Below are positions 36,973 through 54,809 of a DNA stretch of 64,000 nt, piece after piece. The notes under the pieces are model-generated. The model had not been told where the DNA came from, searched no databases, and saw only the letters and a list, made by a program, of their open reading frames with translations. Both the position numbers and the translations under genes were made by a program. The first letter of the stretch is position 1. Every line of letters starts with the position of its first letter. Location: positions 1-64,000 of the forward strand of contig JANJXX010000005.1 of assembly GCA_024720975.1 (NCBI GenBank), written 5' to 3'. The stretch comes from Thermoproteota archaeon. GTDB taxonomy: Archaea > Asgardarchaeota > Njordarchaeia > Njordarchaeales > Panguiarchaeaceae.

Positions 36973-38310
36973 TCAGAGGATATATGTTTCAGTCCAATTA
37001 AAGTTGTTAACAAAGTTCATTAGATCGCTCTCTATATACTTAAAGTTCTCCTCAACGCCGTACAAAACAATCATTCCGGTTAAGTCGTATTCCTCTATAT
37101 TCGTGACAAACACATAGCACAGTAATTTAAGTTCCACACGGGGACCGAAGTCTGAAATCGTCCTCATAGTTGAGTTTAAATTAAGATACATTCTCGCAGT
37201 TTGTGAAGCTTGATACTTTCCTACCTTATATAGGGTCACAGTGGGTTCGAAGTGTCTGATACCCTGCATTATTAGCCATGCTAGAAATTGCAGACTTATT
37301 ATCTCCTGTAGAAGAGTCAGATCACAATCGCCTGTCTTTAAATCTATTATTTTCTTCGCACTGCGGATTAGATATAAGTTGATGCCTGCTTGGTACCAAT
37401 AACTGTCCTCATATATATGTTGAGTAGGATATGTTATGAAAACTGTCCCGGAAACGCCTAGTGGCGACCATACGTAAGACATGCGCATTTCATGTATGCT
37501 CCAGTCGCCCGGCAGGAAGTTCTTGATACATTCATGAACTTTTCTCTCGGGAGACAACATGTAAAATCCTCCAACAAGCGCAATTGGCGCAACGATTATC
37601 AGTAGAAGAGCCAGCCCGAATGCTTGTCTCTTATAGTTAATCTTTCCCTTCACAGAAGAAAGCACAGTTTCGAGATCTAGCGCGAGCCATACTATGCCGT
37701 ATAGAATTAGCGGTCCGGCGCTATCTATTATCATCAGGTATATTGTTGTTTTCACAAGCTCCAGCATAGTTCCAGAGAAGACATCTACAAACAATGTAGA
37801 ATATAGCGTTAGATCTATGATAACCAATGCCGGAGGAGCTACTAATAGCATAATTGCACCCAAGGTTTGTGGTGGTATTCTGACCTGAGTGAAAACCGGC
37901 AGAAAACTTATTGCTAGAAGAAACAATCCAAATCCAGTTAACGAAATGCCGGCAATTTTTATCCCCAATTCCGGTGAAGACAATAGAAAAACGCCCGAGC
38001 TCAGGAATAATACTGGGATAAGTATGTGTCGGGGACCAAGTTTTTCTAATCTACCTTGAATGAGGCTGAAGGCGACTCCAAGGAAAAGTGAGTATATTAT
38101 GTATGATGGCACCTTCCACGCCAATAAGGGATCATGAAGAAGTGTAGCCATCACAAGAGGCGTTAAAGTTGCAATTATCGCTGTATCAAGAATTGGGACA
38201 AGGCTAGCTGCGAAAACTATGCCTACCTTATCTAGAACAGTGTAACCGAAACTTTCACCTACCAGGCCAAGTATTGAATTCATCAAAACAAAGCACAAGA
38301 TTATCAACAA
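36973..38310 (-). CDS. Multi-pass membrane protein with C-terminal soluble domain (N-terminus weakly ECF S-component-like)
   Basis: About 8 TM followed by a ~190-aa hydrophilic domain. Confidence 0.6.
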   Translation of the reverse strand: MLIILCFVLMNSILGLVGESFGYTVLDKVGIVFAASLVPILDTAIIATLTPLVMATLLHDPLLAWKVPSYIIYSLFLGVAFSLIQGRLEKLGPRHILIPVLFLSSGVFLLSSPELGIKIAGISLTGFGLFLLAISFLPVFTQVRIPPQTLGAIMLLVAPPALVIIDLTLYSTLFVDVFSGTMLELVKTTIYLMIIDSAGPLILYGIVWLALDLETVLSSVKGKINYKRQAFGLALLLIIVAPIALVGGFYMLSPERKVHECIKNFLPGDWSIHEMRMSYVWSPLGVSGTVFITYPTQHIYEDSYWYQAGINLYLIRSAKKIIDLKTGDCDLTLLQEIISLQFLAWLIMQGIRHFEPTVTLYKVGKYQASQTARMYLNLNSTMRTISDFGPRVELKLLCYVFVTNIEEYDLTGMIVLYGVEENFKYIESDLMNFVNNFNWTETYIL

Positions 38311-38595
38311 TTTACGCAGATACCTTATCAGTTATGACACCTAGCTAATCAAACTACGCCTCTCAATGGTTCGAAAAGCTTGAAAAACCCAAACCATAAA
38401 ATTGACAAAAATTCGTCAAATATCCTTAAGTACACAGTAATAAAGCTTTTTTAGACACAAGTAGCATTTATCTAGATAGATCTCGATTCAAAGTGATTCG
38501 ATGAGCCGGTAATTTCCAAATGGTTGAGACTTCTATCGCGGGTTCCCCATAGCCATATATAGATTCTTTGCGCTTTTGTCTAAGTAGGTAACATG

Positions 38596-38920
38596 TTGGA
38601 CTGTTTTCTTTGTGAACTTTTTAAGCTATTTTAGCTACTACAGATACATAGAAACAAAAGAGAAACCAGTGAGCATAAAGATTTTTATACCTTAATTCTA
38701 TATGAACTGATATTAGGCTCTCGCCTCAATGACGGCGTGGTGGTCATCAGAGGCGGGAGGATACACCTGTCTCTCGAGGCGGGCTTAGTGGTGCCCGTCG
38801 ATGTAGCTCCCGATGACCCTGCGACAAATGAGCAGGTGCTGAGGGAGAAGCCCGTGTCGAGTATATCTATGATATTTAAAATACCTAAACAAACCCAAAT
38901 AAGCGACACGGACAACCACT
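38596..38920 (+). mobile_element. Non-autonomous tnpB-derived mini-element copy 1 (promoter + tnpB 5' remnant + putative omegaRNA)
   Basis: Shares the left segment GACTG...TTTTTAAGCT...TAC..GAA and a ~200-nt right segment (CGCCTCAATGACGG...CAACCACT) with two other copies. Confidence 0.75.
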
Positions 38921-39024
38921 TAATGATGATTTTATATTTGTCTTAAGCTACTGCAATATCATAGTTGATTTCCTAATGTATTATTGTTGGAATAGAGTAT
39001 CGACTGAGTCCCGTGGTGAAATTA

Positions 39025-39711
39025 ATGAGCGAACAGAAAGGGGAAGAATCCAAAATGTCAGAAGAATCGCAAGTCGAGGCGGAAGCTGAGAAGATCCTCA
39101 AAGAACTTGAAGCTGGCGAGATTAAGCTTTTTGATAGATGGAGTTGGAAAAACATAGTTGTAAGGGATCCGGGTCTTGTAACGTATATATCTTTAAAACC
39201 TATGTATGTTCCTCATAGCTTTGGTAGGCACGAAAAAACGCGTTTTGCGAAGGCGAAAGTTAATATAGTTGAGAGATTGATAAATAGATTAATGACACCG
39301 GGCAGAGAAAAGGGTCAACCTAAGACCGGCAGGTTTACTGGTAAAAAACTTCATGCCATGAAAATTGTAGAGGCAGCATTTGAAATAATAGAAAAATTGA
39401 CAAAGGAGAATCCTATACAGGTATTCGTGAGAGCAGTGGAAAATGTTGCTCCGAGAGAGGACTATACATCTTTCAGAGTTGCAGGAATTATCAAGAAATT
39501 TGCAGTTGATATAAGTCCGCAGAGAAGGGTAGATTTAGCTCTTAAATTCATAGTATTAGGTGCTAGGCAACGTGCATGGAGATCACCAATTAGTATAGCC
39601 GAAGCCCTTGCAGAGGAGATAATTGAAGCAGCAAAGGGTCCAGATAATGTAAACTCAATAGCCGTAAGCAAAAAGATAGAATTAGAAAGGATAGCAGAAG
39701 CCGCCAGATGA
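39025..39711 (+). CDS. rps7: 30S ribosomal protein uS7
   Basis: KLFDRW, PHSFGRH, IVERLIN, NPIQV, PRED, VDISPQRRVD, ERIAEAAR. Confidence 0.96.
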   Translation: MSEQKGEESKMSEESQVEAEAEKILKELEAGEIKLFDRWSWKNIVVRDPGLVTYISLKPMYVPHSFGRHEKTRFAKAKVNIVERLINRLMTPGREKGQPKTGRFTGKKLHAMKIVEAAFEIIEKLTKENPIQVFVRAVENVAPREDYTSFRVAGIIKKFAVDISPQRRVDLALKFIVLGARQRAWRSPISIAEALAEEIIEAAKGPDNVNSIAVSKKIELERIAEAAR

Positions 39712-39713
39712 TA

Positions 39714-40466
39714 CTATTCCACAGTTTTCAAAAATTCTTCTATTGCTTCTATCGTTTGCTTAAGCATAGCTGAGAATAGTCTTTCCCCCTTTTCCCTTGA
39801 TGCTCTACTAGGATAGCCCAGCGCACCAGTATCGGTAAATTCTATTGTTCTCCAGGGATATATAGCTCTGCTCTTGCTTCGAAAATCGAGATGTTTACCC
39901 AAATGACGGAGCTTTGGATCGATAACCTTGTTAAGACGTACTAGATTAGGTTCTTCGAATAGCATTATGGATGTTTCAAATTCACAAGCATGTCCCCATA
40001 CATCGCTCTCAAGAATTTCTTTTACTGTGTCGTTAATTAGTTCCCAAGGATTAATAAGGAGAGCATTGATCTTATATTCAAATTTCAATTTCCTAACAGC
40101 TTCTGAAAGTGCATTAGTATTACCCCCATGTCCATTTATAATTATTATGGCTCGAACGCCATGCTTTGCTAAACTATTTGCAATTTCACAAACGAGTCTG
40201 ATAAGAGTCTCAGAGGAAATTGTTATTGTTCCTGGAAAATCCATGTGATGCTCAGAGACACCATAATACACCGGAGGAAGAACAAGTATAGAACCACCAA
40301 AATTCTTGGCTACTTCCAGGGAGAATTTGTATGCACTTATTGTATCAGTTATTAAGGGCAAATGATATGCGTGTTGTTCCGTGCTTCCGATGGGTAAGAT
40401 AGCGGCTCTTAATCTGGGAATAGCATTCTTGATTTCGTCCCAACTACAGAATCCCCATTCATGCAT
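39714..40466 (-). CDS. Creatininase/MftE family amidohydrolase
   Basis: PIGSTEQH..HLP..TD, NGHGGN, HACEFETS. Confidence 0.9.
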   Translation of the reverse strand: MHEWGFCSWDEIKNAIPRLRAAILPIGSTEQHAYHLPLITDTISAYKFSLEVAKNFGGSILVLPPVYYGVSEHHMDFPGTITISSETLIRLVCEIANSLAKHGVRAIIIINGHGGNTNALSEAVRKLKFEYKINALLINPWELINDTVKEILESDVWGHACEFETSIMLFEEPNLVRLNKVIDPKLRHLGKHLDFRSKSRAIYPWRTIEFTDTGALGYPSRASREKGERLFSAMLKQTIEAIEEFLKTVE

Positions 40467-40627
40467 ATAAAATCCCTAGCACTAATTGCAGAATAGTTAG
40501 TCTCAAAATAAGATCCAGTAGAGTTTCTTTCAACTGAGAACAGAATTCAGCACTTAATTGCTCGTATTTTAAAAAGGTTATTTGGACTTAACAACCTAGC
40601 AAATATACCATTGAACGGTGAAAAACA

Positions 40628-40945
40628 ATGGCCGGAACAGAAGCTCCCACAATATATGTTGGAAAGAAGCCCATCGTTAGGTATCTAATGGCCGCGATTT
40701 CAATCCTATTGAATGAAAAGCCCGAAAAGCTCCGCATTAGTGCACGCGGGCGCATGATAAGCAAGGCTGTCGATGTAGCAGAAATGCTCAAAACACGCTA
40801 TTTGCCTGGGATAGTTGATATAGATGCGATAAAAACTGGTACAGAAGAACTTCAAGATCCCAACCAACCCGGTAGAGTTAACAGAGTCTCAACAATAGAA
40901 ATCACCCTAAGAAGAACCGGCGAAATAGGAATTTCTAGAAGATAA
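40628..40945 (+). CDS. albA: DNA/RNA-binding protein Alba
   Basis: IYVGKKP, ARGRMISKAVDVAE, VSTIEI. Confidence 0.93.
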   Translation: MAGTEAPTIYVGKKPIVRYLMAAISILLNEKPEKLRISARGRMISKAVDVAEMLKTRYLPGIVDIDAIKTGTEELQDPNQPGRVNRVSTIEITLRRTGEIGISRR

Positions 40946-41335
40946 AAACTAGCTTCTGTGCAGTCAGCCACTCTTTTTTCATTCCTCATTTATCAGACTA
41001 TTATATTAATTTCTGCTGCCTTCATCTATCGAACTAGGATGACGACCCAATCCTAGTAATCTAACAATAGTAATACGTCTAGAACCCTTAACTTTAGATT
41101 AACCACTCTCTAATGTGGGTATACTCCACTTCTCCGGCTATTGGTCGTTATTCCGGATGATATCCTACAGTTCATATCCTAATAGGAACCCAGCCAGCGC
41201 AAAGAAACTTTACCAGGCCGTGCCATAAGCTTTTATAATCATAGCCTTCCAGAGAGCGTAGTACCCTTGAAAAATCTCCAGCCTTTGGGTTAAAGCAAGG
41301 TATATATGCCTATAACTTAAGATAAAAAGTAACAA

Positions 41336-41661
41336 GACTGTGTCTTCCGTAAAAGTTTTTAAGCTGTTTTAGCTACTATAGGTACTTGGAATCAGATTCA
41401 AGTGCAAGAAATGCGGATTCGAGTTTAACTCACACTACGTAGCTTGCCTAAACCTCTTCTCTCGCCTCAATGACGGCGTGGTAGCCATCAGAGGCGGGAG
41501 GATATATGCATACCTCGAGGCGGGCTTAGTGGTGCCCGTCGATGTAGCTCCCGATGACCCTGCGATAGATGAGCAGGTGGCGAGGGAGAAGCCCGTGTCG
41601 ATAATACCCAAGATAATCAAAACACCTGAACAAACCCAAATAAGCGACACGGGCAACCACT
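41336..41661 (+). mobile_element. Non-autonomous tnpB-derived mini-element copy 2 (retains Zn-finger/RuvC-III remnant)
   Basis: From 41394 reads RFKCKKCGFEFNSHYVACLNLFSRLNDG, a TnpB-type C-terminus. Shares promoter and tail with copies 1 and 3; abuts the rps12 stop codon. Confidence 0.8.
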
Positions 41662-42102
41662 CTATCTCTTCTCTTTCTTCTTGCGGCCAGATACAAGCTC
41701 ATATAGGGATATTCCATTAACCTTAATTACACGGTATTTTACACCGGGAATATCGCCAAACGAGCGTCCACGAACTCCTCCTATGGGTTGAATTAGAACC
41801 TCATCATGCTCATCAATCATTAAAAGTCCACCGTCATAAGGTACAAAGGCAGTTACAATTTTCCCATTTTTCTTTAATTTTACCTTCACACACTTTCTAA
41901 GAGCGCCTGTTGGTTTTCGTGCCTCGACTCCAACTTTTTTGAGGACAATCCCTAACGCCTGCGGAGCTCCCTCAAGTGGATCAAACTTCTTCTTGAATCT
42001 TAGGACTCTCCTCTTATAATCGAGGTCAGCCCATCGTGCTTTACTCCTCTTTTTCCTCAGTATCCTTACTGCAAACTCTCCCCTTGGTGATTTCGTTACC
42101 AT
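41662..42102 (-). CDS. rps12: 30S ribosomal protein uS12
   Basis: [30 protein letters not shown]. Start set at ATG 42102 after GAGGAAGGAG. Confidence 0.95.
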
Positions 42103-42360
42103 TTCTCCTTCCTCATTCTTATACATGCTTGCTAGGTAGTACACTATCATTTCAGGCTTTTTAAGGTAAGTCATTGCTTCACCTGGTTTGAATATGACCT
42201 ATCAGCTATAGAGCTCAAGTAGATGGCTTAGTTTAAAGAACTTTAAAGTCGTGGTTACCTAAGATACCTTTCCTGCATTGAAGTAAGTCAGAAGAAGATA
42301 CCCTACTCTAGCTCACTCAATAATCAAGTTTCTCGGCAACCGCTAAGTCTACAAGTCTAA

Positions 42361-42420
42361 CTTAAAATTTCAAAATTCTTAGCAAAATTTCTTAAAAATT
42401 TCAAAAATTTCTTTTAAAAA
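42361..42420. repeat. Phased AAAATTTC repeats upstream of secreted protease gene
   Basis: Five imperfect AAAATT(T)C units at roughly 10-bp spacing. Confidence 0.6.
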
Positions 42421-42480
42421 AGCTTTTTCAACTATACTGTATCAGAATATTATTCCTGATAACTTCCCCAAGGCGATTCC

Positions 42481-44115
42481 ATGAAAGCGAAGGCAATAGC
42501 AATCCTAAGTTTCCTTCTAGTAGCCGCCCTTACTGCAATAAGTGTAAGCACAGTCTACGCAAAAAGCTATAATAAAACGCTTCCCGATTTCTCTGATTTC
42601 CTAGAGTCTAGAGACGTGGCTGCTATAATTTACGAATTTGTAGGATCCCTCAGTGCTGGCAAGGAAACTCCCCAATACAGCTTCTCCGTCGACTCTACAG
42701 TTACTAAAATAGAAGTAACCCTCAATATGCCAAGTGGTACTGACTTTGACTTGTCCGTCTGGGATCCCCAAGGCAGGCGTACTGGAGGCTGGACTTCGAC
42801 GGATAAGTCTGTAAAAACTCAGATTCCAAATTCGAAATATTCAGGAGACTCAGCGAATCCTGAGTGGGTCACTGTAAGTCCTCCTGCAAGTACAGGTACT
42901 TGGAAGACTAGTTGTTATGCGTACTCAGGTTCTGGCAACTTCAAGATCACAGTAAAACTGTACGTCACGTCAACAAGCCAGTATAAGTACATATTCTCGG
43001 GCTCAGTTAGCAGTGGCAAGGATAGCACGCAACACTCATTTAGTGTTCCATCTACAGCGACCAAAGTTGAAGTAACCCTTAATATGCCAAGTGGTACTGA
43101 CTTTGACCTATCAGTTTGGGATGCTCAAAACAGGCGTACTGGAGGCTGGACTTCGACGGATAAGTCTGTGAAAAATCAAATTCCAAACGCGCAGTACTCA
43201 GGATACTCAGCGAATCCCGAGAAGATTACCGTAAGCCCTATAGACTCCACGTCAGTTGGTACTTGGAAGACCAGTTGCTATGCATACTCAGGTTCTGGAA
43301 CATACACAATAACAGCCGTGGTCACTCTGTCTACTAGCAACGGTGGTGGAAGTAGTGGAGGCAGTAATGGAGGTAGCAGTGGAAGTGGCGATGGTGTAGT
43401 TAGAAAGTGGGCTGTGATAGTTGGTATATCTGACTATAAGGCAATCTCAGACTTGTCATACTGTGATGAGGATGCAACGGATTGGTATAACTTCTTAACA
43501 GGAAAACTCGGCTGGCCCTCCTCGAACATCAAAGTTTATGGAGATGGCAGTAGTAGCAGTTATTATCCAAAGTATGATGGTAAGGCGACGGAGTATAACG
43601 TCAAGCAGGCATTGAACTGGCTCGTAACAACGGCTGATGCCGATGATATAATCGCATTCATATCATCCGGACACGGAAGTGGAGACGGTAAAGGAAACTC
43701 ATACCTCTGCATGTGGGACAGTGGAGCTGGCGAGAACGGTCAAGATGGAAATCTCTGGGATTACGAGCTAGCAGCAATACTCAAGAATGCAATTGCCGCT
43801 AAAATATTCGTATTCCTGGACCATTGCTACTCCGGTGGATTTGGAAACGACTTAATGAGCATGCCCAATAGTGCTAGAGTATACCTGACGACAACATGTA
43901 CTGAAAAAGGATATGGATATGATGATCCAAATCACAAAAACGGTGCATGGACATATTACTTCCTAGAGTACTCATGGATAGGAAAATATGGAGGATCCCC
44001 AGACGTAGCTCTAGAAGATGTATACGCATACGCTAAAAGTGCATACCCATACAGTGGAGGCGACGCACCACAGCAATTCGATGGAAACCCCAACAGTCCA
44101 TTCTACCTCAAATAG
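42481..44115 (+). CDS. Secreted caspase-family (clan CD, C14-like) protease with two PPC-like domains
   Basis: Signal peptide; two repeats with TDFDL/GTW; G/S linker; KWAVIVGISDY, SGHG, FLDHCYSG His-Cys dyad. Confidence 0.8.
   Translation: MKAKAIAILSFLLVAALTAISVSTVYAKSYNKTLPDFSDFLESRDVAAIIYEFVGSLSAGKETPQYSFSVDSTVTKIEVTLNMPSGTDFDLSVWDPQGRRTGGWTSTDKSVKTQIPNSKYSGDSANPEWVTVSPPASTGTWKTSCYAYSGSGNFKITVKLYVTSTSQYKYIFSGSVSSGKDSTQHSFSVPSTATKVEVTLNMPSGTDFDLSVWDAQNRRTGGWTSTDKSVKNQIPNAQYSGYSANPEKITVSPIDSTSVGTWKTSCYAYSGSGTYTITAVVTLSTSNGGGSSGGSNGGSSGSGDGVVRKWAVIVGISDYKAISDLSYCDEDATDWYNFLTGKLGWPSSNIKVYGDGSSSSYYPKYDGKATEYNVKQALNWLVTTADADDIIAFISSGHGSGDGKGNSYLCMWDSGAGENGQDGNLWDYELAAILKNAIAAKIFVFLDHCYSGGFGNDLMSMPNSARVYLTTTCTEKGYGYDDPNHKNGAWTYYFLEYSWIGKYGGSPDVALEDVYAYAKSAYPYSGGDAPQQFDGNPNSPFYLK
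42630..43330 (+). repeat. Intragenic tandem domain duplication (357-bp offset)
   Basis: GAAGTAACCCT(C/T)AATATGCCAAGTGGTACTGACTTTGAC at 42712 and 43069, plus further identical blocks. Boundaries approximate. Confidence 0.85.
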
Positions 44116-44395
44116 TATTTGATCCTTTCCTACATTCCTTTTTCTAGTCCTTTCTCCCCTCTGATTAAGTTTGTATCAGGAGTGCACTTACAAGGCTGCC
44201 TTCTCGGGTTTAGAAGTTTCTCAATCACTCATTACTGTTAATTGACTTAGCGCAGACTTATATCATGAGAATCGGAAGATTTGCAAAAATATTTCAAGAC
44301 TTAATTGCATTTGGAGAAAGGCTATAATGAAGTACCTTGGGTCTTCAATATAAGTGGATCAGTCCTTTACAAGAGACTTGTCGTCCGGGTTTAAT

Positions 44396-44797
44396 TTATC
44401 GCCTATGCTGTGTGGAGAATTTGTATGGTAGTAATCTAGAGAGTTCTAGTATTACAGGTTCTCCTTCCTCTGAGCAAATAATCACCTCAAAATTGTCGTC
44501 AACGAACTCACTCATGACCTGTCTACAGGCACCGCATGGGGATGGGTTGATGTCAGGTGAATATATGAGAATTCGGTAGAATTTCTTTGCCCCCTCTGAG
44601 ATGGCTTTAAAAAATGCTACCCTTTCAGCACATACGGTCAGTCCATATGATGCATTTTCTATATTGACTCCAACAAAGTAGCCTTTGTCTGTTTCAAGCA
44701 CAGCGGAAACTCTTATTCTAGAGTAGGGGGCGTATGAGTTCTGAATGTATTGTTTTGCAATTTCTAAAAATCTCTCAATAAAGAGTTCTCTAGCCAT
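44396..44797 (-). CDS. cdd: Cytidine deaminase
   Basis: SYAPYS, GVNIENASY, CAERVA, SPCGACRQ. Confidence 0.95.
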   Translation of the reverse strand: MARELFIERFLEIAKQYIQNSYAPYSRIRVSAVLETDKGYFVGVNIENASYGLTVCAERVAFFKAISEGAKKFYRILIYSPDINPSPCGACRQVMSEFVDDNFEVIICSEEGEPVILELSRLLPYKFSTQHRR

Positions 44798-45147
44798 CGG
44801 ATAACACCTTAGGTCTACTTTGATCATGAGAATGAATTTTTGTAAGGTCCTAGGAGGCGTATAAATCACTATTTTTGATTATTAGTCGTCACTTAATTTG
44901 AAATTGCGGGTAGCTTAACTTAGCTTCTCTCTAAAAGGTAAACGACTTTAAGCTAGGGCAAGCGAATGAGTATTAAAAACGTACTAATAATGACTAGCCG
45001 TTAAGTAAGTCAGATATCGTTAGAAGTCTTTAAAAAGTGAGAATGAGTAAATCTACTATATCGTGCTAATTGAATATGATATCCGATTATCTTCCTCAAC
45101 TCTAGCTTATAGGTATAGTCTACTTAATCTTCCACAGGAGGAGAGCT

Positions 45148-45543
45148 TTGAGTAGTGATATTCACGATAAGCTGCACGAAATTGCCAACTCATACGATAT
45201 AATATCACTCTACAGAATGGAAAAAGACGGGGAAGTCTTGCTCTATGTATTGACTTACGATGAGCTAAACTATGAGAAAAAGAAAGAGATCGAAAAAAGT
45301 TTAATCAGCTTATTTGAACCTACTAAATGCACTGTACTTTTTGTCTCAGATCTTCCTCCTCAGCATCTTAAACAAATGGTCGAGGGGTCAGAAATAATTT
45401 TCGTTCGTGACAAAAACTTGAGTGACTCAATACTAGCTGGAATACTTACTCTGAGTCTCGACTTTCAATACCTTGCAAACGAGGGAATGAGCCTAATACT
45501 GAGGAGAAAAATAGCTGAAGCTCTAACCTCACGCGGTGAATAG
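45148..45543 (+). CDS. Degenerate MNT (MntA-like) nucleotidyltransferase-fold protein
   Basis: Size and position upstream of HEPN; LFVSDLPP...IIFVRD...DFQ pattern; lacks GS and DxD. Confidence 0.5.
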   Translation: MSSDIHDKLHEIANSYDIISLYRMEKDGEVLLYVLTYDELNYEKKKEIEKSLISLFEPTKCTVLFVSDLPPQHLKQMVEGSEIIFVRDKNLSDSILAGILTLSLDFQYLANEGMSLILRRKIAEALTSRGE

Positions 45544-45970
45544 GATGTTAGAGAGTTTATCGAGCGACCCGCTAAAGAGAGCATGCAAGATCATTGATTG
45601 TGCTCTTGAAACTCTTAAAAAAGTTCTAGGAAAGAGTGATAGCGAGGTGCTTTCATCAGAGCTTGAAACTTATGCGCTTAAGGGCTCGGCATTGTCTCTT
45701 GTTCAAGGTTTTTTAGATCTTGCGAACTATCTATCCGCGATTAAAGAGTATCATCCACTGAACTACAGTGATATGATCTTGTACCTGATTCAGAATGATA
45801 TTGTTGATAAGGAATACGAGAAGCTTGCAATAAAATTGGTAGATTTAAGGAATAAGCTCTTATTTGTGAATAGTGGCGAATCCGTAGGGGATCTTCTCAA
45901 TTTCCTCCGCGAAAATCTTAAGCGAATAGAAGAATTGTGCAACTCCCTGATTAGAGCATGTCTCTCGTGA
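45536..45970 (+). CDS. Degenerate HEPN/DUF86 (HepT-like) protein
   Basis: VQGFLDLANYL, PLNYSDMI, LRNKLLF (His of RxxxxH replaced). Confidence 0.65.
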   Translation: MNRMLESLSSDPLKRACKIIDCALETLKKVLGKSDSEVLSSELETYALKGSALSLVQGFLDLANYLSAIKEYHPLNYSDMILYLIQNDIVDKEYEKLAIKLVDLRNKLLFVNSGESVGDLLNFLRENLKRIEELCNSLIRACLS

Positions 45971-45976
45971 AAGCGG

Positions 45977-46261
45977 TTGACTACTATGTCAAGAGGTAAA
46001 AAGGCAAGAATATGGGAGCGCCCACTTAGAATTGCTATTTTGGAAATTCTGGAGAGAAAGGGGGGTAGAATAACGGAGAAGGAACTCACGGATAAACTTA
46101 AGGAAATGTATACATCCATCTCAGAACATGAGATAAATGCTGAGTTAATGCATTTAGAATTAAACAGGCTAATCTATGTTGACTCATCTACGCCAACGAA
46201 TAAAGTAATAGAGCTTCTCACAGAAAAGAAATGGTTCAAAGCTATAGGGGGAACGGAGTGA
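45977..46261 (+). CDS. Small winged-helix protein
   Basis: AILEIL....G.ITEKEL...L...INAELMHLE....IYV. Confidence 0.6.
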   Translation: MTTMSRGKKARIWERPLRIAILEILERKGGRITEKELTDKLKEMYTSISEHEINAELMHLELNRLIYVDSSTPTNKVIELLTEKKWFKAIGGTE

Positions 46262-47268
46262 TTCCACGCAAATTACCTCTAGGGAAAGTGCCTATAGATG
46301 TTCTTAAAAGGCTACTAGAACTAGCGCCACTAAGCGAAGATGTGATCGTAGGACCAGGTATTGGAATAGATGCGGCGATCATGAGATCAGAAGACGATTA
46401 TATTATAGCTGCCTGTGATCCAATAACAGGTGCATCAAAAGAAATTGGCTGGCTATCGGTCCATGTAAACGCAAACGACATATACGCGAGTGCCGGAAAA
46501 CCTAGGTGGTACGTAGCAACTCTCCTTTTTCCCAAAGACTCAACAGAGGAGCAAATAGTAGCAATCATGCGGGGCATAAGAGAAGGTTTAGAAGAAACAG
46601 GCGCATCGCTTGTCGCTGGGCATACAGAGCTTACTAACAGAGTTACCGAAGCCATTGTTGTAGGAACAATGATAGGAAGTCCATTTATTCCGGGCAAGTA
46701 TATTTCAAATAGGAGTGCGAAAGTGGGGGATGCGATAATAATGACCAAAGGTGCTGGAATAGAGGGTACATGGATTCTACTGGAAGAAAGGGGTAGCGAA
46801 CTAGAACTACCCGCAAGAATCCTGAGTAAAATACCAGAACTTAAGAAAATGGTAAGTATCAGAAAGGACGTTCAAGCTCTCCTTAGAATAGGTATAAATA
46901 ATATTCATGCGATGCACGACGCCACTGAGGGAGGGGTCCTAGGAGCCATATATGAAGTATCGGAGGCGTCCAGGGTAGGCTTCGAAATTTATGAGGAGAG
47001 CATTATTGTTAGAGAAGAGACTCAAATACTGTCTGAGATTCTGGGCATAGACCCCCTTAAGTTGATATCATCTGGCACGCTTCTAGCTACCGTCGATAAG
47101 GACTATGCAGAGGATGCCATAAAAGTGCTTAAAAAGGAAGGCATAGATTCATCAGTAATAGGGTATATAAGGGAGAGCGACAGGATATTAGTTAAGAAGG
47201 CTGGTGAAAGACTGCGCATTTCATCGCCACCCACAGATGAACTTTGGAGAATAATTGGAAGCTGTTAA
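46258..47268 (+). CDS. AIR synthase / HypE-like family protein
   Basis: GPGIGIDAA, DPITG, NANDI, AGHTE, MHDATEGG, DELW. Confidence 0.88.
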   Translation: MIPRKLPLGKVPIDVLKRLLELAPLSEDVIVGPGIGIDAAIMRSEDDYIIAACDPITGASKEIGWLSVHVNANDIYASAGKPRWYVATLLFPKDSTEEQIVAIMRGIREGLEETGASLVAGHTELTNRVTEAIVVGTMIGSPFIPGKYISNRSAKVGDAIIMTKGAGIEGTWILLEERGSELELPARILSKIPELKKMVSIRKDVQALLRIGINNIHAMHDATEGGVLGAIYEVSEASRVGFEIYEESIIVREETQILSEILGIDPLKLISSGTLLATVDKDYAEDAIKVLKKEGIDSSVIGYIRESDRILVKKAGERLRISSPPTDELWRIIGSC

Positions 47269-48512
47269 AATTGGTTGCGATAATCGGCTTAGCAACACGT
47301 CTTCAGATAGATTCTGTTGAGAACCAATACGAATACATCAAGCAGAACTTAGCAGACTCATATGATGAAGACTTTGGTATTTTAACGAATGAAGCTTCAC
47401 TACGAAAACTCATCACGAGACTAAAGAATCACAACATTATAATATCAGTTGTGCTCACTGGTGGAACTAAAAAGCTGATAGTCAACCTGGGAAAGCTAAG
47501 GAAGCCTATGATTCTAGTATCAAATGACAAACAAAATGCACTTTCATCATCTTTGCATGCACTCTATATCCTTAGAGATCACAACAAAAAAATTCTACAC
47601 ATACAAGGCGACCTGAAGACGGTACCGTGGAATTCGGTAAGAAAAGTTATCTCAGGAATAAATGGACTATTATCAAACCCGGCAAGAAATATAGTACTTA
47701 TCGGCGTTTCTAGCAACTTTCTAGAGGAGGAAAAATATAACCTACATTCATTAAAAGATAAATTTGGCTTGTCCGTAAAAACGGTGTCTCTTAGGAAGTT
47801 TCTTAAGCAGTTAACGAAAGCTGAACCCGATGAAGGCGCTATATCAAAGATGTTAAAAATTCTAGAAAAAACGAAGACGGATGATATCTGCGAGAAGATA
47901 GCTAAAATTCACGCCGTTAGCAAACTGTTAATGAAGGGATCCATTGCTGGGGGAATCAGATGTTTTCCAATAATTTCAAAAGTTGGAGTAACTCCCTGCT
48001 TTGTTGTCTCTGATTTTCTTGATGAAGGAAAAATTTTCGGATGTGAAGCAGATTTAGCGGCTATAATATCAATGCTTCTAGCTAAGTACATAACCGGGGA
48101 GATACCATTTGTAGCAAATCCGATAACTCTAGAAAAAACTGGTAGACTAACTTTGGCTCATTGTACGGCCGCAACAAAGCTTTTTTCATCGGATGCGAAG
48201 TTATCCGAACATTTCGAATCAAAGAAAGGATATGCTGTGGAGGGAAGTTTTAGAGAGAACTCAACAATAACGCTTTTGAAAGTAGATCCCGGGTTTTCAA
48301 AACTCCTTTTGATCAGAGGACAAATTCTCGTCGGAAAGCGATTTTCCAACGAATTTTGTAGGAATCAAGTTGTAGTAGGCTTCGAGAAAGAGCCACTAAG
48401 AATACTTTCCGGAGAGTTTGCGCACCATTTGATAATGATATATGGGGATCATACAACCGAACTTAAATACGCGGCAGAACTATTAGGACTTGAACTCGTG
48501 AATTATTACTAA
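47244..48512 (+). CDS. L-fucose/L-arabinose isomerase-like family protein
   Basis: TGGT, RCF, TPC, GCEAD, AHCT, HFES, CRNQ, HH...YGD. Confidence 0.75.
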   Translation: MENNWKLLKLVAIIGLATRLQIDSVENQYEYIKQNLADSYDEDFGILTNEASLRKLITRLKNHNIIISVVLTGGTKKLIVNLGKLRKPMILVSNDKQNALSSSLHALYILRDHNKKILHIQGDLKTVPWNSVRKVISGINGLLSNPARNIVLIGVSSNFLEEEKYNLHSLKDKFGLSVKTVSLRKFLKQLTKAEPDEGAISKMLKILEKTKTDDICEKIAKIHAVSKLLMKGSIAGGIRCFPIISKVGVTPCFVVSDFLDEGKIFGCEADLAAIISMLLAKYITGEIPFVANPITLEKTGRLTLAHCTAATKLFSSDAKLSEHFESKKGYAVEGSFRENSTITLLKVDPGFSKLLLIRGQILVGKRFSNEFCRNQVVVGFEKEPLRILSGEFAHHLIMIYGDHTTELKYAAELLGLELVNYY

Positions 48513-48621
48513 CCACCTTCTTAGTTACTTAGAATAATTCTCGTCATGATTAAGAAATCAGTGGTAAGAGTTCCAAAAAAGTGGGAGAGTATTATTTTAG
48601 ATGCCAAGTGGTGTGGCTTCA

Positions 48622-48661
48622 ATGACCCCGAGGAGGATTGTAGTTGCCTCCTCGGGGCCAT
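48622..48661 (-). terminator. GC-rich hairpin immediately after the speD stop
   Basis: Perfect 11-bp arms CCCCGAGGAGG/CCTCCTCGGGG, extending to 15 bp with a G-U pair on the minus strand. Terminator role is inferred. Confidence 0.55.
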
Positions 48662-49020
48662 CAAGCACGTTGCTTTTCTGTGTGGGGCTCCCCCCGCATA
48701 AGAGTAATACTGAAATATTTTTCAGGCTTTAGCGATTCGATGATTAGCTGAGAGGCTTTGTGCGGGTCTATACCCCGACAAGTAAAGACGTCAACTGCAG
48801 CATAACAGAATTCAGGCCATGTATGTATTGAGAGATGCGACTCAGCTATAGCCACTATGCCCGTTACGCCTTGCGGATTAAACTTGTGAAAGTGATATGC
48901 AAGCACAGTACCGCCAGCCTCTTTACTGGCCCTTAAAAATAACTCTTCCAGAAACTCTTTGTCATTTAATAACTTCGGATCTACCCCATGTAGTTCTATA
49001 ATTATGTGTTTTCCCAGCAT
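48661..49020 (-). CDS. speD: Pyruvoyl-dependent S-adenosylmethionine decarboxylase proenzyme (SpeD/SpeH family)
   Basis: LGKH, FNPQGVT, AESHLSIHTWPE, DVFTC. Arginine-decarboxylase paralogue not excluded. Confidence 0.85.
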   Translation of the reverse strand: MLGKHIIIELHGVDPKLLNDKEFLEELFLRASKEAGGTVLAYHFHKFNPQGVTGIVAIAESHLSIHTWPEFCYAAVDVFTCRGIDPHKASQLIIESLKPEKYFSITLMRGEPHTEKQRA

Positions 49021-49193
49021 CTTCCACCGCCGGTGGATATATGCTTAGAGTTATTAGAGATATATTTAACTTAAAAAAGTGTAATTGCGTTACTCGTCTC
49101 GAAATTCATGCAACACAATAATTGTTTCTATATTGCTTAAAGAATCTTCTGTTGTTTAACCTAGGAAAAAAAGAATTACTGAGGTAATGCACA

Positions 49194-50282
49194 ATGACTA
49201 GGGAAAAAGCCTATGATTTGTTGCTTGAGATCGCTAAAAATGCAGAGAAAAAAACAGGTATTCCCGCATATCCTCGCTCAGTTTTAAATGTTATGTCAGC
49301 AGCAGCACTTTCTAACAATGTCTTTTGGGTGGCTAGATACTCTCGGGAAGCCTTCAATCTTCTTATCGAAATTCTCAAGGAATTAGAAAAAAGAAACCTG
49401 GTAAATCTGCAGGCTGGTGTTGAACTTACAGAAGAGGGGAAGAAGCTTCTACAAGATGTTGGGTACGAGATCAAGTTTAGAATCTGTGACCATTGCAAAG
49501 GACGAACTATACTGTTTGACGAGATCTTGGATAAAGACGTTGTGAGAGAATTTATTAAGATACAAGAAAATAGACCCCCAGCAATCCAGGAATTTGATCA
49601 GGGTTTTGTTACTTCAGAGACAACCCTTGCAAGAGTAGCGTACATGTACTACAGAGGGGACTTAAGAAATAGAGACATAATAATACTAGGAGATGATGAC
49701 TTACTTTCGATAGCTGTGGGGCTCACAAATTTAGCGAATAGGATCGTTGTAATAGACATAGATAAAAGGTTAACTGAATTCATACAAAGAGTGTCTAACG
49801 AATATGGACTTCGCATAGAGGTTTATACAGAGGATTTGAGACGCCCGCTACCCGAGGATCTCTGCCGAAAGTTTGATGTATTTCAGACAGATCCGCTAGA
49901 AAGCTTGAATGGATTTAAAGTTTTTGTAGGCCGTGGAATCGCTGCACTTAGAGGGGAAAGATGCGCTGGCTACTTTTATCTCACATTAGTTGATGCTTCG
50001 ATAGACAAATGGAGAGAAATTCAAAGGCTTTTGTTGACAGAGTTCAATGTAGTCATCACTGATATAATACCTGACTTCTCAGAATACGTGAACTGGAATT
50101 TGTATTTCGAGGAAATGCAAGCATGGAAAATCCTTCCAGAATCCCTAAGGCAAATACCAAGAGATGGCTGGTATGTTTCAACGCTCTTCAGAATCGAGAC
50201 TCTTCGAGGCTCGCGGGGATTATTCGAGACCATATCTTCGGAGGAAAACATATATTATGATAAAGAGTTAGCATCAGCATGA
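49194..50282 (+). CDS. bpsA: Branched-chain polyamine synthase (DUF43)
   Basis: RPPA...FDQG, LGDDDL, DID.R, DLRRPLP, TDP, F..RG; divergent from speD. Confidence 0.88.
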   Translation: MTREKAYDLLLEIAKNAEKKTGIPAYPRSVLNVMSAAALSNNVFWVARYSREAFNLLIEILKELEKRNLVNLQAGVELTEEGKKLLQDVGYEIKFRICDHCKGRTILFDEILDKDVVREFIKIQENRPPAIQEFDQGFVTSETTLARVAYMYYRGDLRNRDIIILGDDDLLSIAVGLTNLANRIVVIDIDKRLTEFIQRVSNEYGLRIEVYTEDLRRPLPEDLCRKFDVFQTDPLESLNGFKVFVGRGIAALRGERCAGYFYLTLVDASIDKWREIQRLLLTEFNVVITDIIPDFSEYVNWNLYFEEMQAWKILPESLRQIPRDGWYVSTLFRIETLRGSRGLFETISSEENIYYDKELASA

Positions 50283-51706
50283 CAAAACAATTTCTCCCAG
50301 CTAGATCTTGCATAAATACATCCAGGATCCGGTGCCAAGAAATCTCCAAAATAGTTGTAAGCTCTAGCACGGCATCCTCCACACACGTATTTATATTGGC
50401 ATTGTCCGCATTCACCCTTAAGTAAATCTCGATTGCGAAGCGACTCCAGAACCTTATTTTCTCTCCAGAGCTTTTCGAAATCATCCTCGAGGATATTGCC
50501 GATTTTCTTTCTAAGGAAAACGCAGGGATAGATATCACCATTGGGTTCTAGTGCCAAATAGACACGCCCCGCACCGCAACCTCCTATTAATTCTAGCATG
50601 CTACCAAAACGCTTAGATTGTTCCCTAATTGTGTAGAAGTGGCCGGCTATAAACGGTTTTTCTGAGAATTCCAATCCTATCTCATAGGCGACCGCGGCAT
50701 ATTGTGGGGCTGTTGAAGCGGCAGAGAAACCATTATAAAGAGCGTTAGCTAGTATTTTCAAGACCTCCCAGCGTTCCTCGGGACTCAGATCCCATTCTAC
50801 AATATCTCGCCCCCTACCGACTGGGACGTAGTTGTATGCCATGAACATGTCAACTTTGAGCTCATTCTTGGCAAATTCAAGCATACGCTGGATTTCTTTG
50901 TGGTTCCTCTTTGTAATCGTCATGGAGACTTCGACAATAATGTTATGCTTCTTGAGGTTTTTTATGCCCCTAACAGCTTTTTCCCAGGCTCCAGGTACGC
51001 CTCTAAATTCATCATGGAATTGACTACTAGGCGAATCTAGACTAACTTGAGCAAAGATTAAACCACTTTTAGCGAGCTTCTCAGCGATTTCATCTGTTAT
51101 TAAAGTAGCATTCGTAGCCATGGCCAGATACATGTCATAATCATGGGCTCTTTTTAGAACTTCCCAGAAACCTGAGCCAAGTATAGGTTCGCCACCTGAA
51201 AGAGCAAGCATAGCTACGCCAGAATCTGCAAGCGTGTCAAGAGCTCTCAATTTTTCCTCGACGCTCATTTCTGGTAATTCTATGCCTGCTGATGCATAAC
51301 AATGCTTGCATTTTAAGTTACATCGGAAAGTGAAATCCCAGACTATCAGTAATGGAGCACCAGAGGAAAAAGGAACGCGCACGCCAAATATTTTGAAACC
51401 CTTAAGTAGGCTAGCTATGATTTTTCTTGCATAAGGCAACTTGAGCATGTTGAGAAATTCATTCTTATCGACATCAAATTCTTTAATCAACCTGTCCATG
51501 TAGTACCTGAAAAATGGGTAAACAACATAAGCCACTAAAGATTCTCTAACATCCTCACCACAATACATAGCGAGAAGGTATTCAATATAAGTTCTCTTTT
51601 TACCGCTCTTTCGGAGTAAGAATGACAGCGCTAGCTCTGAAAGCCGCGACTCGGCTAGTCGCTTTAAATTCATAATAACTTTTTTTGCATCCGTAGTAGT
51701 ACTCAT
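50255..51706 (-). CDS. Radical SAM/SPASM domain protein
   Basis: CNLKCKHC, SGGEP, GCGAG, DIYPC, CGQC...CGGCRARA...DPGC. Confidence 0.92.
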   Translation of the reverse strand: MSTTTDAKKVIMNLKRLAESRLSELALSFLLRKSGKKRTYIEYLLAMYCGEDVRESLVAYVVYPFFRYYMDRLIKEFDVDKNEFLNMLKLPYARKIIASLLKGFKIFGVRVPFSSGAPLLIVWDFTFRCNLKCKHCYASAGIELPEMSVEEKLRALDTLADSGVAMLALSGGEPILGSGFWEVLKRAHDYDMYLAMATNATLITDEIAEKLAKSGLIFAQVSLDSPSSQFHDEFRGVPGAWEKAVRGIKNLKKHNIIVEVSMTITKRNHKEIQRMLEFAKNELKVDMFMAYNYVPVGRGRDIVEWDLSPEERWEVLKILANALYNGFSAASTAPQYAAVAYEIGLEFSEKPFIAGHFYTIREQSKRFGSMLELIGGCGAGRVYLALEPNGDIYPCVFLRKKIGNILEDDFEKLWRENKVLESLRNRDLLKGECGQCQYKYVCGGCRARAYNYFGDFLAPDPGCIYARSSWEKLFCHADANSLS

Positions 51707-51781
51707 TTGAGATTCAGTACACGAAAATGCATTCAAAATAGTCACCTTAAGTAATCATTAAGATTTATTCATTACTATATA

Positions 51782-51801
51782 TCATTAACTAAAGTTAATG
51801 A
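51782..51801. promoter_or_regulatory. Perfect inverted repeat, candidate operator upstream of radical SAM gene
   Basis: TCATTAACT-AA-AGTTAATGA (9-bp arms). Confidence 0.45.
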
Positions 51802-51925
51802 CATTATTGAAGAAACTAAGTGAGCATTATAGTAGTCCTGGTCCGAAGAAAATGACTGCTATCTCTAATGGCATCGTAATTAGCGAGCAAGACGGGAGAT
51901 TAATGCTTAGGGAAATAAAAACGAC

Positions 51926-53608
51926 TTAGCCAACGGATTTGAAGCGCCATTTACTATAAGCCCGACGCGCGCTTATTATTGCATGTGCATTAAGGCTCAT
52001 CCAATACATCCCAGATTCTTCGAAGAGCTTTGCTGCTTTCTTAAGCAGTTTAATCGCTAGTTTTTCCCTCTCGTCAATGATTTTGTTGGAGATTTCGTTG
52101 AGAAATGATGCGTAAACGGGAGCGCTTCTGGGGAGTAAAAGTTTTTCAGCAGTCTTTACGGTTTCTAGAAGTAGGTATTCCTGGTGATTTTGAACAGATC
52201 CTAAAGCTACTGCGAATAGTATCTCACCAAGTTCATTTGCTCGAAGTTTTGCATGCTCTAGATTGTTCAATATGTACCGAATGCCGTCAGTAAATTTTTT
52301 CTTCGAAAGATATTTGACAGCAATAATTAGGTAAAGTGGATCACTTAAACCGATCAGTCTTTCTATAGCTTTAGAGATGTCGTTCTCGCTGTCTGAGACT
52401 ATGATTGTAATGAGTGATTCTAATCCAATCTTGTGTCTGGCTTCATTAATCAACTCTGAAGTGCTACTGAAAATTTCAGTGAGCTCACGAAACTTCTCAT
52501 TGCTAGTTGCTACTTGAAAGAGCTCATTCCAAATCTCTAGGTGCTGAAGGCCGCTTATTTTGTTCTCTTTATTGAACGTTCTGATAGCATTTACCAGTAA
52601 AGTCTTAAGCCCAAGTCGCAAGGCAGCCGCGGCATATGCTTTAAAAACTCTTAGCGTACATGGTTGATCTTCAACCTCATAGCAAATGTTTATGGCCAAG
52701 TCTAGGTATGCTTGGCTACTTGATGCATCTTTGCTAAGCAAGTTTATTGCGTATTTTAGTGCAAGCTCTATTAATCCATTTCTTGCGCCTAGGTTATATA
52801 ACTTGCTGATGATCAAATTCATGATTCCTATGGATTCGATATCACACTTCTCGAGTGCAACGGCTAATATTTTAGCAAGCATGTCAGCTTGATCCTTGGT
52901 TTCGACTTTACCCAGCGCCTTCGCAATCAATTCTGGAAAAAATCCAGGAATGCATTCAACTTCGTTTATATACTCCCAGAGAGTAATTAAGAAGTTACTG
53001 AGATCATTATTGACTAAATCAAGAAATTTCTTGTTAGTTTCCTCATTCGGTAGGTACGAAAGAGCAATTCCTAGTAAACTAAAATACAGTCTAGGATCAA
53101 TAACTCTTATCTTATTGATGAAGTCGAAGCAAAGTGCATTGTTTCCTCTTTTAAGTAGCACTCGGATTAGATTTCTCGATAATAGTCTATCCTCAAAATC
53201 TGAGAATCCCCGCGATAGCAGTAGGTCAAAAACTTCGGTAGCATTCGGATTGACGAGAAATAGCTCTCTAAAATATATAACTTTGGCTTGATCAAAAGCG
53301 CTAGCATCGAATAGAGATAATAGTTCCCCGAGTTTCTCTAGATACTTCCCACTAGGAACAATTCTCTTGATAAGGTACTCAAAAATTGTAAGTGCCGCTT
53401 GTTGCATCGAAGCCTTAAGAAAAGATACTATCGCTAAACGACCATATTGTAGCATAGACTCAAGGGTGTTAGAAAGATAGAGTAACTCCCTGTAGAATTT
53501 AGCAACAGCAAACCAAATAATTCTAGATTCATATCCGATCTCAGGCAATATTGGCTCGTTTTCCAATTGTCTTAGTATGCTCCTAGCTAATTTATAATCC
53601 TTAAGCAT
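51926..53608 (-). CDS. Alpha-helical solenoid (TPR/SNAP-like) hypothetical protein
   Basis: Leu/Ala-rich amphipathic helices throughout; AIKLLKKAAKLFEESG. Confidence 0.6.
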   Translation of the reverse strand: MLKDYKLARSILRQLENEPILPEIGYESRIIWFAVAKFYRELLYLSNTLESMLQYGRLAIVSFLKASMQQAALTIFEYLIKRIVPSGKYLEKLGELLSLFDASAFDQAKVIYFRELFLVNPNATEVFDLLLSRGFSDFEDRLLSRNLIRVLLKRGNNALCFDFINKIRVIDPRLYFSLLGIALSYLPNEETNKKFLDLVNNDLSNFLITLWEYINEVECIPGFFPELIAKALGKVETKDQADMLAKILAVALEKCDIESIGIMNLIISKLYNLGARNGLIELALKYAINLLSKDASSSQAYLDLAINICYEVEDQPCTLRVFKAYAAAALRLGLKTLLVNAIRTFNKENKISGLQHLEIWNELFQVATSNEKFRELTEIFSSTSELINEARHKIGLESLITIIVSDSENDISKAIERLIGLSDPLYLIIAVKYLSKKKFTDGIRYILNNLEHAKLRANELGEILFAVALGSVQNHQEYLLLETVKTAEKLLLPRSAPVYASFLNEISNKIIDEREKLAIKLLKKAAKLFEESGMYWMSLNAHAIISARRAYSKWRFKSVG

Positions 53609-53632
53609 TTAGTAAAACCAGCTAACACCATC

Positions 53633-53903
53633 AGTGGTTGCCCGTGTTTTTTTGTTCAGGTTTGCCTAGGTGTTTTGGATAACATGAATACTATTAACAC
53701 GGGCTTCTTCCCCAGTACCTGCTTACCTATCGCGGGTCATAGAGGTACATCGACGGGCACCAACGAGCCCGCCTCGGGGGATAGACATATCCTTCTGCTC
53801 CCCCTGGTGGCTACTCTACCGTCATTGAGGCGGGACACTTTTTGATTCCAAGTACCTATGGTAGTTAAAATAGCTTAAAAACTTTACAGAGAAAACAGTC
53901 CAA
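53633..53903 (-). mobile_element. Non-autonomous tnpB-derived mini-element copy 3 (shortest)
   Basis: Reverse complement: TTGGACTG...TTTTTAAGCT...GGTACTTGGAATC joined almost directly to CCCGCCTCAATGACGG...AACACGGGCAACCACT. Confidence 0.75.
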
Positions 53904-53978
53904 GAGATTTGATGACATAAAAGCGCAGTAGTTGGAGCTTCCTAATAGCATATTGAAGAAGGATTACTGGAGTATATG

Positions 53979-54809
53979 TCAGGTACTCATGGCAATTAGC
54001 AGCTCGCGAGCAATGGCTGCTGCTAGGGTCGCTGTTGTACTTCTGAGTTCCCCTCCTGTCAGCTCTACAATATCGGCGAACTTAGGCCTTAAGTATTTTA
54101 AGTATCGTAGCAGCAAGTTAGGAGGCAGACCGAAGGGCTCCGGTGTACCAACATCTGGGGCATAAGCGGGGTCGAAAACGTCCAGGTCTAGGGAGATGTA
54201 ATCAGCTTTTTTGAAAATGTCCTTAAGTACTGCTTCATTTTCAAGTATGTCATATGTCGAGTATGCCTCAACACCAAATTCCTCCAGTGCTTTTAACTCT
54301 TCGGGGATACCAGTCCTGTAACCTAAGAGCACTACTCTGTCATAACCAAGGAGCTCACCAGCTCGCCTTAATGTGCATCCGTGCGAATACTTCAGTTCTT
54401 GATATGTATCTTCAAAATCTGGATCAGCATCAATATGCACATACATTTTAACTTGATTGTGCAAGTGCTGGAGTGTCATAATTGTTATAGAGTGATCTCC
54501 TCCAAGAAATAGGTATTTCTTTGCACCTATCGTTCCAAGTGCTTCACGAACCTTTTGCATTGTTTCTAAAAATCCGCCATGAATCACCTCAACATCTCCC
54601 CAGTCTGATATTGGAAACTCGCTGACGCTCCTCTTGAAAAACAAACTAAATTCATTTAGCGTTTTAGATGCTAACCTTATGAGTAGGGGGCCATGTCGAC
54701 TTCCAACGAAAGCAGATTGGGTACTATCAAATGGTATGCCAAGCACTGCTATGTCTAGGTTTTTTGCAGCGGGCAAACCAAAAAGGGTTACATGGTTCAA
54801 GATAGGCAT
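53979..54809 (-). CDS. Agmatinase/ureohydrolase family protein
   Basis: GIPFD, GP..IR, GGDHSIT, DADPD, SHG, DLDVFDP..AP..GTPEP.G. Confidence 0.85.
   Translation of the reverse strand: MPILNHVTLFGLPAAKNLDIAVLGIPFDSTQSAFVGSRHGPLLIRLASKTLNEFSLFFKRSVSEFPISDWGDVEVIHGGFLETMQKVREALGTIGAKKYLFLGGDHSITIMTLQHLHNQVKMYVHIDADPDFEDTYQELKYSHGCTLRRAGELLGYDRVVLLGYRTGIPEELKALEEFGVEAYSTYDILENEAVLKDIFKKADYISLDLDVFDPAYAPDVGTPEPFGLPPNLLLRYLKYLRPKFADIVELTGGELRSTTATLAAAIARELLIAMST

Follow-up and report, generated by a model that had tools for sequence, protein, structure and literature searches.

The window, that is, the whole stretch of DNA analyzed here, comprises 64,000 nucleotides on contig C25 of a 1.36-Mb hot-spring MAG that is 81% complete. 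It contains three copies of a repeat, at positions 38596–38920 (plus strand), 41336–41661 (plus strand) and 53633–53903 (minus strand), termed copies 1, 2 and 3. Each copy consists of a left segment of about 60 nt, a middle of variable length and a conserved tail of about 200 nt that ends in ...GGGCAACCAC. The left end is common to nine copies in the genome. The features of the window copies are as follows.

38599–38662, plus strand: left end of copy 1
38716–38919, plus strand: scaffold of copy 1 (predicted omega RNA), 180 bits, with one C.A mismatch in helix P5 (GGAC)
41336–41394, plus strand: left end (LE) of copy 2; first letters GACTGT, holds a TATA-like TTTTTAAG
41395–41458, plus strand: remnant of the TnpB zinc-ribbon/RuvC-III region in copy 2 (KCKKCGFEFNSHYVACLNLF), 95% identity to the full-length tnpB of contig C26
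41459–41660, plus strand: scaffold of copy 2 (predicted omega RNA), 196 bits with covariance model R1; included in alignments A3 and A4
41661–41680, plus strand: predicted guide of copy 2, flanking DNA; deduced from omega RNA architecture, its own locus being the sole match in the genome
53842–53900, minus strand: left end of copy 3
53634–53838, minus strand: scaffold of copy 3, degraded (predicted omega RNA), 120 bits with covariance model R1

The score of the copy 2 tail is the highest that R1 gives among the copies of the genome. The right end of this copy adjoins the stop codon (41662–41664) of rps12, the gene for ribosomal protein S12 (41662–42174, minus strand). A different type of repeat is present further on in the window, at 42694–43315, where an open reading frame of 544 amino acids (42481–44115) contains internal repeats in direct orientation, 189 nt and 58 nt long and about 360 nt apart; they represent the duplication of a domain in a secreted protein.

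The tail is found nine times in the genome, but only one copy, at C26:51902–53483, is full length. It displays, in order, a left segment, a gene encoding a 52 aa HTH protein (PF12728) and a gene encoding a 437 aa protein of the TnpB/Cas12f family (tnpB, L009:1738–3051), which matches Pfam PF07282 at 8e-15 and solved Cas12f/TnpB structures at about 1e-10. The tnpB frame continues through the tail, which provides its last ~58 codons; the tail is thus formed by the last ~165 nt of the tnpB frame together with ~40 nt past the stop codon. Relatives in public genomes and metagenomes nearly all carry a tnpA encoding a MerR-HTH and a serine recombinase about 600 nt upstream of tnpB. A further copy of about 600 bp (C11:200427–201028; L163:1390–1830, minus strand) shows a 146 aa fusion open reading frame, in which an internal deletion joins the tnpA HTH and catalytic-serine motif directly to the TnpB tail. 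The upstream serine-recombinase tnpA of the relatives and this fusion place the element family in the IS607 type. The full element is a left end, tnpA (MerR-type HTH plus serine recombinase), tnpB and a right end, and the 52 aa HTH protein on C26 is the product of a truncated tnpA. Truncated remnants, i.e. this HTH and the HTH plus catalytic-serine fragment on C11, are all that the genome bin has of the tnpA of this family. A Y1 (IS200-type) transposase was not found in the genome (81% complete).

The RuvC domain of the TnpB family has an invariant D199 and E290, and its third position, which aligns to the D of Cas12f NADYNAARNI, is occupied by H373 (clade A) or Gln (clade B). The canonical D-E-D triad is therefore absent, its third acidic residue having been replaced, and the canonical nuclease activity of this TnpB is for that reason not assured. 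Conserved replacements of the RuvC-III Asp by His are known, including in archaeal and serine-recombinase-linked branches, and have been read as active variants (PMC10691335).

Three other proteins should be mentioned. P0077, a homologue of 537 aa, has a listed PIN domain (PF01850) ahead of the TnpB zinc-ribbon, and this may represent a fusion or a gene-calling artefact. In P0112, another homologue, TnpB carries an in-frame N-terminal extension that is HTH-like. Outside the window, C25:92224–92784 (L162:1312–1872) encodes a second IS607-like TnpA (186 aa), a distant one with ~30% identity, near a left-end-like sequence on the opposite strand (C25:93180–93233).

The secondary structure of the tail was analyzed with two alignments. 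A3 (MAFFT) contains 84 tails, of which 7 belong to this genome and the remaining 77 to further genomes and metagenomes; their TnpB identities range from 90% to ~48%. A4 contains 102 matches realigned with R1. RNAalifold on A3 recovered most helices unaided, and the final structure, which was completed by hand, has six helices: P1 (A3 columns 3–12/35–50), P1b (15–21/28–34), P2 (84–90/99–105), P4 (113–117/152–156), P5 (159–167/228–236), and P3, nested in P4. Their positions in copy 2 are shown below.

41459–41468 with 41491–41500, plus strand: P1; column pairs 10–37 and 11–36 switch between C-G and U-A in 31 and 24 sequences
41471–41477 with 41484–41490, plus strand: P1b hairpin, within P1; 12 double changes at pair 21–28
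41519–41540, plus strand: P2 hairpin, GGCGGGC/GCCCGTC; all 7 of 7 pairs compensatory, 98% of cells paired
41548–41552 with 41584–41588, plus strand: P4; pair 114–155 is U-A in 57 sequences and C-G in 15
41559–41563 with 41573–41577, plus strand: P3 hairpin, within P4; mean z of -2.2
41591–41600 with 41645–41654, plus strand: P5, long terminal hairpin; 7 of 9 pairs compensatory
41655–41660, plus strand: invariant AACCAC at the scaffold 3′ end, also the right boundary of the transposon

Standard pairs occupy 91.3% of cells in A3 and 92.3% in A4. In a control in which the 3′ partners were slid by 1–3 columns, 39%–50% (A3) and 39%–49% (A4) of cells are paired. Compensatory change is displayed by 27 of the 44 pairs in A3 and by 31 of 44 in A4, and none of 500 shuffles of either alignment matched the observed values. 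Covariation across the family lies far outside the controls, and the observation of the first-pass annotation, made on the window copies, holds.

The helices vary in form. The closing pair of P1b may be C-G, U-A or A-U. In 45 sequences P2 reads GGCGGGC/GCCCGTC, in 35 others GACCGCC/GGCGGTC, around an invariant loop that contains GUGGU (41529–41533). P3 is found as CCUGC/GCAGG, AACCACC/GGUGGUU, AGUGC/GCACU and AACCAUC/GAUGGUU, among others; its register differs between two clades, and a hairpin is formed in both. P5 shows a C-G to U-A change in 20 sequences and rarer changes in its inner pairs, e.g. GCCCAUG/CAUGGGC and GCCUGUG/CACAGGC. Its loop is variable and contains the tnpB stop codon in full-length copies. 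P5 is the 3′ stem that had been proposed from the window copies, GCCCGTGTCG with CGACACGGGC in copy 2 and GCCCGTGTT with AACACGGGC in copy 3; the change from C-G to U-A is a true compensation, and the loop is divergent as described.

By mutual information the strongest pairs are the helix pairs, with those of P2 at the top; no extra or pseudoknotted pairs beyond the helices were detected, and the leftover signal follows the split between clades A and B. The proposal by the first-pass annotation that an invariant GACGG pairs with a downstream CCGTC as a pseudoknot is not supported by the family data. The two motifs do occur and are complementary to each other, but CCGTC forms the 3′ strand of P2 and changes in concert with the P2 5′ strand: about 35 sequences have CGGTC instead, with a compensating change of GGCGGGC to GACCGCC, and GACGG, which lies largely in P1b, stays fixed. 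A different pseudoknot is possible, between the invariant GUGGU of the P2 loop and the invariant 3′ ACCAC beside the guide, a candidate in which both sides are unvarying.

Indels break the reading frame of copy 3, as had been noted earlier, but the accompanying statement that it keeps the pairings is correct only for P1b, P2 and P5; there are mismatches and indels in P1 and P4. The 5′ stem proposed earlier is P1: CTCGCCTC does pair with GAGGCGGG (41491–41498) in copies 1 and 2, one of the pairs being U.G, but in copy 3 the partner strand is disrupted (GGGGGAGCAGAAG). The CCCGCCTC of copy 3 has only a second GAGGCGGG to pair with, and in the family this one belongs to a different helix, as its 5′ strand. 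The damage to P1 and P4, with a score of 120 bits as against 196 for copy 2, indicates that copy 3 is decaying and has not kept all of its pairings. In folding against shuffled sequences copy 2 gives z = -3.3 and copy 3 z = -1.6, the latter not markedly better than the shuffles.

The three window copies are gene-less, non-autonomous deletion derivatives of the full element. The mini-copies in this genome form two subfamilies with distinct middles, and three further variants are present on hot-spring metagenome contigs. At least five distinct deletion junctions join the left end to the tail, with re-entry within a few nucleotides of the P1 start (window positions 41459–41467); a copy in G019, a genome of another family, has the same join near the P1 start. 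One abundant metagenome joint re-enters at 41522, past P1, with the intervening letters unread. The summed contig depth in four hot-spring metagenome runs is 390–790 over 40970–41503, a bin with the left end and the beginning of the tail, 159–278 in the next bin (to 42037), and 14–40 in the flanking genome. The element family is far commoner in the community than this organism.

Matches to the scaffold model were found in 7 of 151 sampled genomes of the phylum and in 4 of 52 genera. A search of four congeneric genomes with the tail DNA gave no match, and the covariance model found one weak tail copy in a congener (G001). The element is mobile and horizontally spread, and its distribution is patchy.

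The right boundary is sharply defined. At 72 distinct loci the conserved sequence runs to GGGCAACCAC and no further, and base composition over the 12 positions beyond it is that of the background. At the left end the relatives start with GACT(G/A)T; in the flank, position -1 is a purine (A 47, G 22 of 71) and position -2 a weak W. The conserved GAC, here counted as the start of the element, may by comparison with known systems belong to the TAM, and only in that case would the left-flank motif be a stronger one. AC (GAC on the left, the scaffold end CCAC on the right) is a possible core dinucleotide.

In TnpB guide RNAs the defining layout is a scaffold that runs over the 3′ end of tnpB to the transposon boundary and is followed by the guide (PMC8612924; PMC10640517; PMC11061315). 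The comparison with TnpB RNAs suggested by the first-pass annotation fits, in that the tail covers the 3′ end of tnpB and stops precisely where the transposon does. Since a structured scaffold overlaps the tnpB 3′ end, stops at the right boundary and has locus-specific sequence next to it, the tail is very probably the scaffold of an omega RNA (reRNA), the guide RNA of TnpB from an IS607-type insertion sequence. Direct observations are the base-paired structure, its overlap with coding sequence, the sharpness of the boundary and the connection with tnpB and tnpA. By analogy with characterized systems, the stop at GGGCAACCAC would be the junction between scaffold and guide.

A mechanism may be proposed along the same lines. 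Transcription through the boundary would make the next ~16–20 nt of flanking DNA the guide, and the scaffold would be bound by TnpB. After excision, the TnpB complex would recognize the rejoined empty site by the motif adjacent to the left end and by the match to the guide, and cut it; recombination would then restore the element. In the window copies the ~60-nt left end with its TATA-like box could drive transcription of the scaffold, and each copy would bear a guide of its own and rely on TnpA and TnpB in trans. As the right end of copy 2 abuts the minus-strand rps12 stop codon, its predicted guide would be antisense to the last rps12 codons.

The predicted guides match only their own loci in the genome, and no second-site target with two or fewer mismatches beside GAC was found for the nine of them. 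No empty site was bridged by contigs of the four hot-spring runs over 38300–54300, where deletion variants and a high repeat depth were found instead. Orthologous loci yielded no usable empty site either; the rps12 loci of relatives have another downstream neighbor. In the congener G004, the sequence downstream of rps12 and the neighbor differ.

The structure might instead act in cis on the tnpB mRNA or on transcripts of the element, with a role in stability, termination or translation control, and not be a guide RNA; a TnpB with an altered RuvC would then not be RNA-guided in the usual manner. The His or Gln in place of the third RuvC aspartate is in accordance with this, as is the absence of any described RNA family that matches: Rfam gave no match at gathering score in the window and only noise at E-values up to 10 over 41300–41760, and neither RAGATH-18 nor any other Rfam covariance model matched. 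A search for RNA-seq runs with this sequence returned none. We nonetheless regard this explanation as unlikely. The structure stops exactly at the transposon boundary in the 72 loci, and it is kept whole in gene-less mini-copies, which have no tnpB mRNA to regulate. Its size of ~200 nt and its position fit those of characterized omega RNAs (PMC8612924, PMC11061315), and the conserved RuvC-III replacements are taken to be those of active variants (PMC10691335).

The altered catalytic site also bears on a variant of the guide RNA interpretation. The gene-less cassettes, each with a left-end promoter and a full scaffold, could be free-standing guide-RNA genes for a His/Gln TnpB that does something other than homing cleavage, e.g. 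RNA-guided binding or nicking that affects neighboring genes. If this is true, selection on the cassettes would partly be for regulation at the level of the host and not for transposon maintenance. This is decidedly unlikely in our estimation.

A further question is whether the helices form in RNA or in single-stranded DNA. Conservation of the right end could serve the transposase and not TnpB, either through helices in single-stranded DNA or as a recombinase-binding architecture for transposition; whatever the transposase needs must stay in the mini-copies, and covariation alone does not separate RNA from single-stranded DNA. In P1, P1b, P2 and P4 together, however, G.U pairs number 139 and A.C pairs 46, and this excess assigns the structure to the sense strand of tnpB. 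P5 is an exception, without a G.U excess (15 G.U as against 30 A.C). The transposase of the family is a serine recombinase, and the IS607 TnpA works on double-stranded DNA by way of a circular double-stranded intermediate (PMC10690162). An enzyme that cuts and rejoins double-stranded DNA provides no role in transposition for a 200-nt single-strand fold, and no Y1 HUH transposase was found. The left end of the mini-copies is only ~60 nt long and has no comparable structure, and six helices over 200 nt far exceed known end requirements. A function for the transposase is thus very improbable; the reading of the tail as an omega RNA accommodates the sense-strand assignment.

The variability at codon positions was determined as column entropy in 68 intact genes, for the 200 codons before the tail and for the tail. 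Before the tail the values at positions 1/2/3 are 0.55/0.42/1.20 bits, a normal coding pattern, and in the tail they are 0.74/0.60/0.73 bits. The loss of codon periodicity falls in the 20-codon bin that starts at the first tail codon. Double changes that preserve stems alter amino acids, in P2 Gly and Pro each to Ala and in P1b Ala to Thr or Ser, and AlphaFold gives residues 372–437 a pLDDT below 50 (shallow alignment). The lost periodicity, the residue changes and the low pLDDT together point to nucleotide pairing as the dominant constraint; protein constraint on the tail is weak at most. That what is conserved is just the C-terminal end of TnpB (~55 residues), with incidental stems, can hardly be right: the frame is open across the tail in 68 of 76 homologues, the peptide motifs VAIRGGR, VVPVDVAP and REKPV recur, and second positions in the tail are slightly less variable than third positions, but periodicity vanishes exactly where the tail begins, paired substitutions change the amino acids, the C-terminal residues are predicted with low confidence, and frame-broken mini-copies retain most helices. 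The first-pass annotation had placed the constraint on nucleic-acid structure and not on protein, and had named beforehand conservation by codon position as the observation that speaks against this; the disappearance of the third-position excess at the first tail codon, together with covariation in six helices, favors structure.

As an omega RNA scaffold, the tail adds to the predicted guide RNAs a covariation-supported family that is missing from Rfam and that belongs to an archaeal, thermophilic clade of IS607-type TnpB with an unusual catalytic site. It also provides a natural example of one stretch of DNA that passes from constraint at the protein level to constraint at the RNA level while still in frame. 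The retention of the whole scaffold by independent mini-elements suggests that the persistence of a non-autonomous copy depends on a guide RNA in cis. With model R1 and so sharp a boundary, elements of this type and their guides can be annotated automatically in hot-spring archaea, and the scaffold with its TnpB is a candidate compact thermostable RNA-guided system. A scaffold of this kind is expected for such elements, and current understanding is not overturned.

Three groups of known systems may be compared. The omega RNAs of IS200/IS605 TnpB (ISDra2, Karvelis 2021, PMC8612924; SisTnpB1 of Sulfolobus islandicus, PMC10640517) are alike in that the scaffold is at the tnpB 3′ end and overlaps the frame, has several helices and about 150–200 nt, and ends at the right transposon boundary with the flank as guide, which is predicted here. 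They differ in the partner transposase, Y1 in those elements and a serine recombinase here, and show no sequence or Rfam similarity to the present scaffold. SisTnpB1 needs D335 (PMC10640517), whereas the TnpB described here has His or Gln at the RuvC-III Asp, and an AT-rich five-base TAM is not visible here.

The IS607-family TnpB systems (CboIStron, PMC10690162; ISFba1, PMC11061315) likewise have a serine-recombinase TnpA with a MerR-type HTH upstream of tnpB and a guide RNA, here predicted, at the right end. In CboIStron the scaffold ends in the same bases as the TAM (PMC10690162); the CCAC end and the R-GAC left junction of the present element would fit an AC core of this type. The reRNA of ISFba1 is derived from RAGATH-18 and lies wholly outside the coding sequence (PMC11061315), whereas the scaffold here overlaps ~165 nt of the open reading frame and has no RAGATH-18 match. 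There is also no group I intron here, and the hosts are archaeal hyperthermophiles. The TnpB branches in which Altae-Tran et al. (2023, PMC10691335) describe a rearranged RuvC-III site share the replacement of the third catalytic Asp by a conserved His; here it is His in clade A and Gln in clade B, a likeness by residue and not by placement in a tree.

The mini-copies resemble non-autonomous derivatives of insertion sequences (MITE- or PATE-like elements) in that they are short, gene-less and multi-copy and have kept both ends. They differ from these in having no terminal inverted repeats and in the asymmetry of what is kept: about 60 nt on the left side, and on the right side the whole ~200-nt scaffold.
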